From Thermoproteota archaeon (GTDB lineage: Archaea > Korarchaeota > Korarchaeia > Korarchaeales > Korarchaeaceae), in assembly GCA_027491435.1 (NCBI GenBank), contig JAOZFG010000027.1:1-21671 (forward strand): a DNA stretch of 21,671 bases. The letters are read 5' to 3'. The position numbers were made by a program, and so were the translations under genes. How positions within the stretch are numbered: the stretch's first letter is position 1; every line of letters begins with the position of its first letter. This document shows, in pieces, positions 18,580 to 21,124 of this stretch. The notes under the pieces were generated by a model. That model was not told the origin of the DNA. It did no database searches and worked only from the letters and a program-made list of their open reading frames with translations.

Positions 18580-19460
18580 GTTATCACCCCAAGCTTCTCC
18601 CTCAACCTGCAAAAGGCGCATACCCTTCCCGAAGTAGGGTAGCCACACCTCTCACATAGATTAACCTTTCTCTCGGGAGGGGCCGCCCTCCTTGCCAGCT
18701 CCCTGACGCTGGTCACCAGGTTGACCAGGGAGCTGGGCCACCTCTCCCTAATCTGATTGAGTAAAGGCTTTATGAAGGCCTGCTTATCCCTTCCCTCGTG
18801 CGGACACTTCGTGTTACAGCTCCTGAGTCCCATCAGCCTGACGTAGTTAAGGGAGTCCATGTCGCTCACCCAGAAGAGGGGCTTCACCTTGCCTGCCATC
18901 CTGTACTCGGGCATCGGAGGGGTGACCGAGTCGAACTGGTGGTAAAGGTACTGGAGGGAGTGTGTGATCAGGTTGTTCAGGGCAAAGTAGGCCATGTCAT
19001 CCAGGTTGTGGCCTGTAGCCACGTAATCGTAGCCGTTCTCCACGGCGTACCTGTTTAGCAGGTACCTGGTAACGACCCCACAGACTACGCAAGCTAGATA
19101 GGGGTTCTCCCTGGGTATTCTGATCCCCCAATCCTCCACGTTTATCAGGATCCTCTCAACTCCTAGGTCCTGGGTTACCTGATCGAAAACCTCTCTACAC
19201 TCCTCTGACACGGGGGAGTATATCATGGCGGCCCCCACCTTCAGGTTGAACTCTTCGGCAAGCGTGTGAACTGAGTGGAGGGCCGCTATAGAGTCCTTCC
19301 CCCCGGAGACCCCTACCAGTATGGAGCTACCTCTTCTAACCCTCCTGAGAACCCTCCTCACCCTCTTGAGGAAGTACCTCTTGAAGTGCTCGTCACAGAC
19401 GTACCCCCCTAAATTTTGGACGAAAATAGTCCCTGGCCTTCGGCAGTAGATGCACCGCAT
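18576..19460 (-). CDS. ttuA: TtuA/Ncs6/TtcA-family tRNA 2-thiolation PP-loop ATPase
   Basis: N-terminal CxxC..CxxH, SGGKDS PP-loop, central CVVC, GHNLDD, CPH, and C-terminal CERC..CAFC zinc finger. Confidence 0.85.
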   Translation of the reverse strand: MRCIYCRRPGTIFVQNLGGYVCDEHFKRYFLKRVRRVLRRVRRGSSILVGVSGGKDSIAALHSVHTLAEEFNLKVGAAMIYSPVSEECREVFDQVTQDLGVERILINVEDWGIRIPRENPYLACVVCGVVTRYLLNRYAVENGYDYVATGHNLDDMAYFALNNLITHSLQYLYHQFDSVTPPMPEYRMAGKVKPLFWVSDMDSLNYVRLMGLRSCNTKCPHEGRDKQAFIKPLLNQIRERWPSSLVNLVTSVRELARRAAPPERKVNLCERCGYPTSGRVCAFCRLREKLGVIT

Positions 19461-19480
19461 ATGACAGGTTGGGGGTAATC

Positions 19481-19490
19481 ATTTATAATT
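19481..19490. promoter_or_regulatory. Near-palindromic TATA box, probably shared by the divergent ttuA operon and tRNA-Trp
   Basis: ATTTATAATT lies in a 57-bp intergenic gap, 21-30 bp upstream of the ttuA ATG (-) and about 28-37 bp upstream of the tRNA 5' end (+). Confidence 0.6.
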
Positions 19491-19517
19491 GAGTTGACCC
19501 CCTCCTTTAATGACAGT

Positions 19518-19653
19518 GGGGCCGTGGCCCAGCCAGGTGACCCCCCGATGATAGAGGGGTAAGCCCTGGAAAGGAAGGGCGGCGGGCTCCAGTCATTGGA
19601 GCACTGAGGGGGAAACCCGTAGGGCGTGGGTTCAAATCCCACCGGCCCCACCA
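19518..19653 (+). tRNA. trnW: tRNA-Trp(CCA) with two introns (19535-19571 at D-loop 17/17a; 19593-19614 at 37/38) and an encoded 3' CCA
   Basis: Acceptor GGGGCCG/CGGCCCC, D stem GCCC/GGGC, anticodon arm GCGGG-CTCCAG^A-CCCGT, T arm GTGGG-TTCAAAT-CCCAC. Removing 37 + 22 nt gives a canonical 77-nt cloverleaf, and both junctions fold into BHB-type motifs. Confidence 0.95.
19541..19612 (+). ncRNA. Putative box C/D guide for Cm34 of tRNA-Trp, split between the two introns
   Basis: Intron 1 carries CCCCCC + G + ATGATAG (box C-like, 19548-19554). Intron 2 carries TTGGAGCA + CTGA (box D, 19604-19607) + GGGGG. The D+5 rule points to C34. Confidence 0.72.
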
Positions 19654-19684
19654 CTTTTGTGGGGGATCCCAGACGAAGATAGCA

Positions 19685-21124
19685 GTGCTCCGATCCGAGT
19701 CCGATGCGGTCAGGGAGTCAGTAAGGTATGTCCTAGACTCCCTTGGCATCTTCTGGGAGGAGGTATCCGAGCCCGACCCGCTCAAGCACACCGTAGCCTT
19801 AATTCCTGAAGGCTCCCCCCTGGTGCCCATCCCAGTTCCAAGCGTCTTCATAGGCAGGGCCGCCTTAGCCTACTTTGGGGGGGAGAAGAAGACCAAGGTG
19901 GGGTCCCCTCCTGAGCCTTCCGGCTTCATAACCATATCTGGGGAGAGGGCCCCAGTTTACGGGCAGCTATACTCCTTCGAAGGCGACAGGATAGTGGGCT
20001 ACGCTCCCGTGTGGGTTAGGGATAGGCACGTCCTCATAGGCTATGACCTCTTCGAGACGGTCAGCTACTTCATTAGGGGGGCTGAGCAAAGCCTGGGGTT
20101 GAGGGACGTCATAGACAGGAGGGGCCGCTTCGACCCCAAAGCCCTGGAGGAGCTTAGAGGGGTTCCCCCGTCGGTGCCCCTGGTGAAGCTACACTCAGAC
20201 TTGGTATTGGCTTCCCTAGCTTTACTCCATAAGAGGGAGGGCCTTCCCTTTCTAACAAAGCTCTACGGGAGGACTCCAGCTAACCTAACGGTGTCCCTCC
20301 TAATCCCTGTGAGGTTCATAAGGAGAGAGGGAAAGTTCAAAAGGGTTGTGAGCAAGCTGCTGGGGAAGAACACGCCACCGTGGTACGAGAACCTAGCCTC
20401 TCTAAGCGACCCCCTGGCCTTTTACTTCGGGAGCTTCCTAGATTACGATCTTAACTCCATGGAGGGGGAGCTCAGGTCCATAGAGGAGAACGGGCATGAG
20501 GTGGGATTGCTAGCATCCATAAGATCCTCTGTCGACTTCTCCAAGATGAGGGACGAGTACACCCTCATATCGGAGATACTAAGGAGGGGCTCCCTTGGCA
20601 TCAGGTTTCCTGTGATAGCAACCTATCTCAAGGACGCGTGGCGCTCCGCCGCTTCAGTTAACGCCAGGTATTCGGTGGCTGGCGAGCTTTCAGGGGGGTT
20701 TGGCTATCCCCTGGGCCTGAATTACCCGAGCAGGCCCTACGGACTCGTTTGGAACCTGCCCCTAACTTCGAGGGTCAGGTCCCCTGAGGCGGCTAGGGGC
20801 GTAGTGAGGAAGCTCCTGAAGTACGGGGGCATGGTTGCGGTGGAGGCCTACACGGAGGATGCGGCAATAGCCTTCATTAGCGCGGCTAAAGACAGCATGG
20901 CGGAAGTAGACACGCCACTAGAGCTGCTCAAGAGGTGGGAGCGCATAAAGTGGGTCAAGGGAGACTTCGTGTACGACAGGAGGTTCCTCTACATGAAGTT
21001 CAGGGCCTCAGATGCCGTGGAAGACATGGGGGTAAGGGTAATCCACCCGTCGGGCAAGCACAAAATAGTTAGGATCTCCCTGTCCAAGGGGGAGGAGAGG
21101 GAACATGCTGTTGAGGTGGTCTGA
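19685..21124 (+). CDS. Hypothetical protein, degenerate polysaccharide deacetylase (NodB-like) fold
   Basis: YDLFETVSYF..DRRGRF N-terminal module, then LAFYF, NGHEVGLL, GIRF and GYPLGLNYPSRP, which resemble CE4-like proteins of glycosylation loci. Confidence 0.6.
   Translation: MLRSESDAVRESVRYVLDSLGIFWEEVSEPDPLKHTVALIPEGSPLVPIPVPSVFIGRAALAYFGGEKKTKVGSPPEPSGFITISGERAPVYGQLYSFEGDRIVGYAPVWVRDRHVLIGYDLFETVSYFIRGAEQSLGLRDVIDRRGRFDPKALEELRGVPPSVPLVKLHSDLVLASLALLHKREGLPFLTKLYGRTPANLTVSLLIPVRFIRREGKFKRVVSKLLGKNTPPWYENLASLSDPLAFYFGSFLDYDLNSMEGELRSIEENGHEVGLLASIRSSVDFSKMRDEYTLISEILRRGSLGIRFPVIATYLKDAWRSAASVNARYSVAGELSGGFGYPLGLNYPSRPYGLVWNLPLTSRVRSPEAARGVVRKLLKYGGMVAVEAYTEDAAIAFISAAKDSMAEVDTPLELLKRWERIKWVKGDFVYDRRFLYMKFRASDAVEDMGVRVIHPSGKHKIVRISLSKGEEREHAVEVV

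Follow-up and report, generated by a model that had tools for sequence, protein, structure and literature searches.

A candidate box C/D-type guide for C34 divided between two introns of korarchaeal pre-tRNA-Trp

The window analysed here, a stretch of 21,671 nucleotides covering positions 1 to 21,671 of contig JAOZFG010000027.1 (assembly GCA_027491435.1, Korarchaeaceae), carries a tRNA-Trp gene that is interrupted by two introns, one in the D-loop and one at position 37/38 of the anticodon loop. An earlier note on this DNA had read the two introns as halves of one box C/D guide RNA for 2'-O-methylation of the wobble base C34 (Cm34), with a box C-like element in intron 1 and the guide and a box D-like element in intron 2. 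We followed this reading through 33 distinct versions of the intron pair from the same archaeal family, and the patterns of conservation and covariation described below are consistent with two introns that pair with each other around a split kink-turn. The parts of the gene on which the argument turns are these:

19518-19653, plus strand: tRNA-Trp(CCA) gene, with exons at 19518-19534, 19572-19592 and 19615-19653 and the CCA end encoded at 19651-19653
19518-19524 with 19643-19649, plus strand: acceptor stem; the T arm lies at 19626-19642 and the anticodon at 19589-19591
19529-19532, plus strand: CCAG, exon strand of the intron 1 splice helix (4 base pairs), whose partner is CUGG at 19566-19569; the bulges are 19533-19535 and 19570-19572
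19535-19571, plus strand: intron 1, in the D-loop, with a bulge-helix-bulge splice motif and an internal hairpin that holds RUGAU in its loop
19541-19546, plus strand: C-run (CCCCCC), of which 19542-19546 would form the 5' side of the inter-intron (kink-turn C) stem
19547-19552, plus strand: proposed three-nucleotide bulge GAU (19547-19549), then the box C core G19550 and A19551 (proposed sheared pairs) and U19552
19556-19559, plus strand: G-run in intron 1, with which the C-run can pair instead in the intron 1 hairpin; it covaries with the C-run in orthologues
19586-19592, plus strand: target strand G31-G37 of the anticodon arm, in which C34 is 19589
19593-19614, plus strand: intron 2, at position 37/38, 22 nucleotides made up of spacer, guide, box D, G-run and AA
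19596-19603, plus strand: guide UUGGAGCA, complementary to G31-G37, with G19599 opposite C34
19604-19607, plus strand: box D-like CUGA, whose GA is invariant in orthologues
19608-19612, plus strand: G-run (GGGGG), 3' strand of the proposed inter-intron stem; 19609-19612 would also serve as a splice-helix strand

When the three exons are joined in silico, ARAGORN recognizes a canonical 77-nucleotide tRNA-Trp(cca), and among the 48 tRNA calls that the same program makes in this genome (1.64 Mb, 51.8% G+C) with introns allowed, the gene in the window is the sole tRNA for Trp found. Intron 1 conforms fully to the bulge-helix-bulge rule, with a four-base-pair helix, three-nucleotide bulges (CC/A and AA/A), a three-base-pair inner helix (19536-19538 with 19563-19565) and a canonical spliced product. 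Across the 33 distinct orthologues, 100% of the cells in its seven-pair splice helix hold standard pairs; C-G to U-A double changes occur in seven sequences, and the covariation score of 0.229 was reached by 0 of 500 shuffles. The predicted splice helix of intron 2 pairs C32-C35 with 19609-19612 over four base pairs, one of them G-U, and leaves AAA as the 3' bulge. By the bulge-helix-bulge rule, the G-run at 19609-19612 should double as a splice-helix strand against C32-C35 (19587-19590), and the 5' splice site of intron 2 would lie in a loop rather than in a bulge, which would make this a relaxed form of the motif.

Two stretches of the introns can face each other. The sequence AUGAUAG occupies 19548-19554 of intron 1, with the single base G19547 between it and the C-run. 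If 19542-19546 pair with 19608-19612 of intron 2, as their letters allow, G19550 falls opposite A19607, A19551 opposite G19606 and U19552 opposite U19605. Within intron 2, G19599 is the fifth base upstream of box D and faces C19589, that is, C34. Position 39 of this tRNA is a C, and intron 2 holds no guide complementary to it. The earlier note had given the letters and coordinates of both introns, their boundaries, the five pairs with GAU bulge, G.A, A.G and U.U alignments, and the register of the guide on G31-G37 with G19599 facing C34; the letters are all present in the sequence, the boundaries agree with the in-silico splicing and with the fully paired splice helix of intron 1, and the alignments and the guide register are possible just as described.

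Our sample comprised 52 orthologues of one korarchaeal family, two of them cut by contig ends; the remaining 50 were parsed and reduced to 33 distinct intron pairs. A whole-gene BLAST search placed the two-intron gene in 33 of 36 genomes of the family (19 of 20 in genus g1, 5 of 5 in g2, 4 of 4 in g5, 4 of 5 in g3 and 0 of 1 in g4), and a further 19 metagenome contigs were added with a pattern of exon letters that was blind to intron content. Two pattern searches did not locate the tRNA-Trp of G023 (genus g4), G018 or G048, the last two being genomes that are 70-71% complete.

The elements expected of a kink-turn are held throughout these orthologues. In all 33 distinct pairs a pyrimidine run is followed by one free base (G in 12, U in 12, A in 6, C in 3) and then by RUGAY, so that N-R-U precedes the GA of box C in each; the core reads AUGAU in 27, GUGAU in 5 and AUGAC in 1. 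On the other side, GGAGC plus exactly one base precedes box D in 33 of 33, and C34 always lies opposite the fifth position. Box D itself varies (CUGA in 18, AUGA in 8, UCGA in 5, UUGA in 1, UAGA in 1), with C at its first position in 18 of the 33, U at its second in 27 and an invariant GA. In a MAFFT alignment of the distinct sequences, and leaving the splice motif aside, intron 1 has no invariant positions but a single C within its run and the U, G and A of its box C core; those of intron 2 are GGAGC, GA and three G of the run. Bases predicted to form the sheared pairs are thus fixed while their neighbours vary, which is, as far as letters can tell, the signature of a kink-turn. The core of such a motif (GA against GA, a three-nucleotide bulge, and U opposite U or another pyrimidine) is present at the level of sequence, and so are a flanking stem 5' of box C and 3' of box D, and a guide 5' of box D with its target at the fifth base. 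Intron 2 is 22 nucleotides long in 22 of the 33 pairs.

The combination is also rare. A search of both strands of the 1.64-Mb genome for a motif made of YCCCC, one base, RUGAY, 20-90 nucleotides and NUGAGGGGR gives a single site, at tRNA-Trp; rough arithmetic predicts about 0.05 sites, and the occurrence exceeds chance.

Three further pairings were considered for the conserved boxes and set aside. That box D is conserved because its UGA pairs with the three opening bases of intron 2 is unsupported, as this pairing fails in genera g3 and g5, where GA stays invariant. Pairing of AUGA of intron 1 with the start of intron 2 was rejected, since the opening bases of intron 2 differ between orthologues with no matching change opposite them, and this pairing likewise fails in g3 and g5. 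A kink-loop inside intron 1 alone was rejected as well: in the window, a GA before the 3' strand of the hairpin gives a loop of two nucleotides, and that GA is missing from most orthologues.

Covariation, too, indicates that the two introns are matched to each other. Counting outwards from the kink-turn junction, contiguous inter-intron pairs number five in 11 of the distinct intron pairs, six in 6 and seven in 16. We tested seven pairs, formed by columns 22-28 with columns 102-108 of the MAFFT alignment (A1). Standard pairs fill 87.3% of the cells, double changes (16 cells) occur at four of the seven pairs, and the helix scores 0.248 for covariation, comparable in strength to the 0.229 of the confirmed splice helix of intron 1. 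None of 500 shuffles reached this score, the count of double changes or the paired fraction, and sliding the partner by 1-3 columns gave scores of 0.05-0.18 with 0-2 pairs showing double changes. Pair 22/108 is C-G in 10 sequences, from one subclade of Korarchaeum, and G-C in 7, from the other; pair 23/107 is U-A in 19 and G-C in 2; and pair 26/104 is C-G in 27 and U-A in 6. Intron 2 ends with columns 107 and 108, two bases that the splice motif leaves bulged and that take no part in its helix. The swap at 22/108 is specific to the inter-intron helix, because column 22 is unpaired in the intron 1 hairpin in the two folds that we inspected (L002 and L010). Pairs between columns 24-28 and 102-106 are standard throughout except for one non-pair and two gap cells at 28/102, which arise because MAFFT mis-registers L200, L021 and L055; such mis-registration lowers, and does not raise, the counts for the helix.

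Two changes of another kind point the same way. In L200, intron 1 carries an additional G ahead of the bulge, and intron 2 an additional C directly after box D. In genus g3, where intron 2 is 34-47 nucleotides long and its splice-helix strand lies at the 3' end, a GGAGG(A) after box D stands apart from that strand and matches the changed CCUCC of intron 1. The swaps at 22/108 and 23/107, the insertions of L200 and the g3 run cannot be explained by the opposite composition of the two runs. The anticodon-loop:guide hairpin of g3 also extends into intron 2, and the extension covaries (AGA/UCU, AGG/CCU, AAG/CUU); a continuous helix of this sort is possible only in unspliced RNA, and its covariation favours assembly in the pre-tRNA rather than from excised introns.

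These comparisons were the ones that the earlier note had proposed as a check, and its interpretation as a split guide is supported by them. RUGAY in intron 1, GGAGC with one base after it, the GA of box D and at least five contiguous inter-intron pairs recur in 33 of 33, and the stem covaries at four of seven pairs in a way that no shuffle or slid register matches. Its caveat that box C departs from the consensus at positions 6-7 was well placed, in that RUGAU alone is conserved and those two positions vary. Its statement that neither intron by itself has both boxes holds for 32 of the 33 distinct pairs and fails for L058 (G050, genus g3). In L058, an AUGAU stands at the very start of intron 2, eight nucleotides before box D (UAGA), in the loop of the cis-hairpin, an arrangement unique among the orthologues.

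Both strands of the proposed stem have other possible partners, and the competing structures were compared by folding whole pre-tRNAs. Thirty-one distinct sequences were folded without constraints at 37 °C and at 80 °C, the latter being near the growth range of Korarchaeum. At 80 °C the mean probability of the inter-intron pairs was 0.45, that of the pairs within intron 1 was 0.20, and all five core pairs stood in register in the minimum free energy (MFE) structure of 23 of the 31; at 37 °C the probabilities were 0.14 and 0.72. The anticodon-loop:guide hairpin had a pair probability of about 0.7 at both temperatures, and the anticodon arm with intron 2 folds into this hairpin on its own (z = -2.74). 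The guide conformer lies within 0-10 kcal/mol of the MFE. At 37 °C its stability exceeds that of the splice-competent conformer by 0 to 15 kcal/mol in eight of nine sequences; in the ninth, L007, the splice-competent conformer is the more stable by 1 kcal/mol. Intron 1 alone folds as a hairpin with RUGAU in its loop in every distinct orthologue, and this helix covaries too. Both partners of the C-run therefore track its changes, as alternative conformers would produce.

Taken together, we lean, if only modestly, towards a model in which a half-mer box C/D kink-turn split over the two introns of pre-tRNA-Trp guides Cm34 before splicing. The pre-tRNA-Trp of this korarchaeal family would then carry a one-guide ('half-mer') box C/D guide whose halves lie in different introns. 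In the guide conformer, the anticodon loop (G31-G37) would form a hairpin with the guide of intron 2, the G-run after box D would pair with the C-run of intron 1 over 5-7 base pairs, and the N-R-U bulge together with the GA dinucleotides of the two boxes would make up the kink-turn. Once L7Ae had bound this kink-turn, C34 would be methylated at its 2'-OH by Nop5-fibrillarin. The RNA would then refold, the C-run returning to its partner in intron 1 and the G-run pairing with C32-C35, whereupon both bulge-helix-bulge motifs would form and the splicing endonuclease would remove both introns. As the two splice motifs would arise by refolding after methylation, methylation would have to precede the removal of either intron. 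We infer the folding of the kink-turn, the binding of the proteins, the methylation of C34 and the sequence of these steps, and also that the guide acts in cis and not on a second molecule. Genes for the required proteins are present (fibrillarin, 299.5 bits; Nop, 219.2 bits; L7Ae, 103 bits). Since the kink-turn core, the flanking stem and the guide position are in place and the full box C consensus, a C'/D' pair and a single RNA holding both boxes are not, we file the element as one that would work like a half-mer guide and not as a standard member of the box C/D class. As for what would be new in the model, namely a kink-turn made in two pieces from two introns, a switch between guide and splice conformers, a Cm34 checkpoint before either intron leaves and the first natural half-mer C/D guide lacking C'/D', we regard the claim as evenly poised between right and wrong.

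Several observations weigh against this model and keep our confidence in it limited. At 37 °C the inter-intron helix, with all five core pairs in register, appears in the MFE structure of only 7 of the 31 folded sequences, and at 80 °C the exceptions are the window's own sequence (probability 0.05), genus g2 (0.03), L071 and L201; the MFE structure of the window's own sequence at 80 °C lacks the helix. Both strands of the stem have rival partners, the C-run within intron 1 and the G-run in C32-C35, and because the G-run complements C32-C35 the core four to five pairs could be a by-product of composition. The stem amounts to only 5 base pairs, with mismatches beyond, in g2, in the window (L001), in L021 and L055 and in L058, so that the window's own copy belongs to the shortest class, and the g3 sequences are of low complexity and allow several alternative pairings. 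The orthologues are kin; we count about 5-6 independent changes, and the shuffle control ignores kinship. The guide duplex spans 5-7 base pairs in most genera. A box C consensus has seven bases and a box D four; here positions 1-5 of box C are kept and 6-7 vary, and the base after RUGAU forms a standard pair with the first position of box D in only 10 of the 33. A second box pair (C'/D') is absent between the boxes and elsewhere in the gene, as is a 12-nucleotide spacer. Furthermore, the two boxes do not share a single intron, exon 2 standing between box C in intron 1 and box D in intron 2.

The probability that the model leaves over is shared by three other readings: a by-product of sequence composition, a purely structural helix, and a kink-turn with some other role. 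It may be that the introns are never in contact: intron 1 would fold into a stable hairpin and carry a splice motif, intron 2 would pair its G-run with C32-C35, the complementarity of the two runs would be compositional, and RUGAU and NUGA would be kept for other reasons. Such a view draws support from the covarying hairpin of intron 1 and the preference of the C-run for it at 37 °C (0.72 against 0.14), from the likely need for the G-run in the splice helix of intron 2, and from the window's own sequence, in which the inter-intron helix is not predicted. It leaves unexplained, however, the double changes at 22/108 and 23/107, which involve the last two bases of intron 2 and, in L002 and L010, an unpaired column 22; the matched G and C insertions of L200; and the separate run after box D in g3. 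Nor does it account for an invariant U, G, A and an invariant G, A exactly beside the two runs while their loop neighbours vary, and the two alternative pairings meant to explain the boxes fail in g3 or g5. We consider it unlikely. The covariation of the inter-intron helix and of the g3 hairpin extension would be expected equally of a helix and an anticodon-loop hairpin that are real and purely structural, holding the RNA in a non-spliceable state or coupling the removal of the two introns, with no kink-turn protein and no methylation; a guide conformer near the MFE and more stable than the splice-competent one in eight of nine sequences would fit this as well. Yet a plain helix has no need of a GA that is invariant in each strand and set in the register of a kink-turn, or of exactly one base ahead of RUGAU, it gives no reason for C34 to lie always at the fifth position from box D, and the same guide-plus-D module stands beside a box C-like element in other archaea. 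A purely structural role therefore seems to us improbable.

It is also conceivable that the split kink-turn does form and binds L7Ae for a different purpose, such as stabilization of the pre-tRNA against heat, recruitment of RNase P or the timing of splicing, and that C34, if methylated at all, is methylated by another route. The kink-turn features and the helix are as expected under this reading, the gene has no C'/D' motif and the guide is short. Moreover, according to published abstracts, L7Ae serves several ribonucleoproteins (RNPs), among them RNase P, of which it is a subunit. What speaks against it is that the guide and its fifth-position register on C34 are invariant and that the genes for Nop5 and fibrillarin are present, and, from the literature, that half-mer guides function in vitro (PMC9670817) and that related introns guide Cm34 in Haloferax. 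This reading, too, has in our estimation a low probability, and the model of a split guide for C34 remains the one that we prefer.

If C34 were served by a conventional guide elsewhere in the genome, the case for the introns would be weaker, and the earlier note had named such a guide among the findings that would undo its proposal. Regular-expression scans of the genome, which a divergent small RNA (sRNA) could escape, turned up no convincing standalone sRNA for C34, and ARAGORN no second tRNA-Trp. A strict sRNA expression gave one match, unrelated to C34; guide-based expressions gave many matches, none with a proper box layout; and a scan anchored on the stem gave 29 candidates, mostly due to chance. 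The match of the strict expression, an sRNA that looks bona fide, has the same geometry as the proposed split element, with a five-base-pair stem, one base, AUGAUGA, then CUGA and the stem.

The distribution of the introns outside the family was also surveyed. A short intron with guide plus box D was found in 28 of the family's 35 genomes and in none of the 7 examined from other families of the phylum; the five g3 genomes have a longer guide-plus-D intron that lies outside the short-intron pattern. In a sister family, tRNA-Trp has one intron of 56 nucleotides, and in another family one of 54 nucleotides with box C-like elements. The 56-nucleotide intron of L024 and L026 (sister family f2) holds GAUGAAGA, an 11-nucleotide stretch ending in CUGGAGC, followed by CGGA and GAA. 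Were CGGA its box D, the fifth base would face C35 and not C34, and a clear terminal box C is absent from this intron. L216 (G027), a relative at the level of class, has no 37/38 intron and has apparent insertions in the D-loop and the T-loop, with no RUGAU in the former; as a single case, it fits the idea that box C occurs only where guide and box D occur. L053 (G043) and L054 (G042), both of g2, have a third insertion in the T-loop, about 30-40 nucleotides after GGGUUCRAA, and their tRNA-Trp genes appear to contain three introns.

The gene in the window is easily overlooked. ARAGORN in its default mode and Rfam at the gathering score gave zero matches in the window; with introns allowed, ARAGORN found the same gene boundaries and mis-typed the gene as tRNA-Leu(cag) with one intron, and an Rfam scan of 19450-19720 by E-value returned only sub-threshold tRNA-like and chance matches. 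Korarchaeal genomes can therefore seem to have no tRNA-Trp because these tools miss or mis-type it. A scan for T arms found 0 further unannotated tRNAs. Elsewhere, at 94611-94720 of contig C5 (genome G000), ARAGORN reports a tRNA-Ser(cga) with an intron; the anticodon loop there actually reads CAU, and the gene is probably a Met or Ile2-type tRNA. A scan for CAU anticodons showed that its intron, of 32 nucleotides at position 37/38, has no box C/D-like motif, and the ARAGORN list contains no other tRNA with this anticodon for the genome.

As to the surroundings of tRNA-Trp, a TATA-like element lies at 19483-19490, about 30 nucleotides upstream of the tRNA 5' end, and orthologues have a similar AT-rich box at equal distance, which suggests that the gene has an archaeal promoter of its own. 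In the 3' trailer (19644-19666), one run complements the acceptor stem's 3' strand and CCA (CCCCACCAC, UUUU, GUGGGGG), and orthologues have such a complement in different letters. Folded alone, the trailer gives -12.7 kcal/mol, which is not significant (z = -0.99); its hairpin may be a terminator or a processing hairpin that competes with the acceptor stem. An open reading frame of 479 amino acids (19685-21124) starts about 30 nucleotides past the tRNA, and its first codons are conserved across Korarchaeum orthologues, which is the reason for the conservation downstream of the tRNA.

Should the model be correct, a box C/D RNP can be built on discontinuous RNA in nature, whereas box C/D guides have been defined, and their gene finders built, on a box C and a box D in one RNA. 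It would also give a function to non-canonical tRNA introns, which are usually seen as selfish or neutral, and a conformational switch in the RNA, testable with simple mutants, would then set when modification occurs relative to splicing. In addition, it would offer a route by which long intron-encoded guides could shrink. Literature searches that covered listings, abstracts and text passages of PMC4090602, PMC7994747, PMC3326292, PMC7668247, PMC3491384, PMC8450103, PMC9670817 and PMC2584109 turned up no account of box C/D elements divided over two introns.

One of the nearest known counterparts is the euryarchaeal one, and here the earlier note agrees with the literature. In the type represented by Haloferax volcanii and Pyrococcus sR50, published accounts describe a complete dual guide (Cm34, Um39) in one long intron of pre-tRNA-Trp, about 103-105 nucleotides in Haloferax, whose pairing likewise forces methylation before splicing. 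The korarchaeal gene resembles it in that the 37/38 intron carries a C34 guide for the very pre-tRNA it interrupts, the target base facing the fifth position upstream of a D-type box, and in a guide pairing that would compete with the splice motif. It differs in that the euryarchaeal intron unites C/D and C'/D' boxes and two guides, whereas intron 2 here has 22 nucleotides, one guide and a box D only; the sole box C-like element comes from the second intron, in the D-loop, and position 39 is a C and is unguided. A dual guide for C34 and U39 in a single 37/38 intron is thus not what this gene contains. A different comparison is offered by Sulfolobus solfataricus, whose tRNA-Trp intron is reported as 65 nucleotides long, forming a stable circle and complementary to position 34 without consensus C and D boxes; Cm34 is present in the tRNA-Trp of S. 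acidocaldarius. Like the korarchaeal case, this is a non-euryarchaeal tRNA-Trp intron complementary to position 34; it stands alone, however, with no second intron to supply a box.

Short 37/38 introns of about 25-60 nucleotides also occur in the tRNA-Trp of DPANN archaea (L073, L077, L081, L094, L101, L108 and L136). They are minimal one-guide K-loop introns, in which the C34 guide is followed by a D'-type box, then by a short loop or hairpin and finally by a C'-type box. Our search pattern required the guide and GA, so the module is present there by construction. These introns share with the korarchaeal ones a UGGAGC, one base and NUGA, CGGA or CAGA at the intron start. In DPANN, a box C-like GAUGA follows 4-17 nucleotides downstream in the same intron, in the D'-then-C' order of a K-loop, whereas the korarchaeal box D has no such follower.

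In its proposed working parts, the korarchaeal element comes close to engineered half-mer guides, which have one kink-turn and one guide 5' of box D and which, with L7Ae, Nop5 and fibrillarin of Sulfolobus, methylate in vitro with strict specificity and efficiency, according to PMC9670817. Half-mers are synthetic and continuous and act on separate substrates through duplexes of 8-11 base pairs; the present element would be natural, its strands lie about 50 nucleotides apart in different introns, and its target is joined to the guide by a loop of 3-5 nucleotides. A precedent for boxes that are brought together only at the level of RNA is found in the permuted C/D box sRNA of Nanoarchaeum equitans, where the order of the boxes in the gene is reported to be a non-working one too. 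There, the boxes are united by circularization of one transcript; in korarchaeal pre-tRNA-Trp, base pairing between two introns would unite them.

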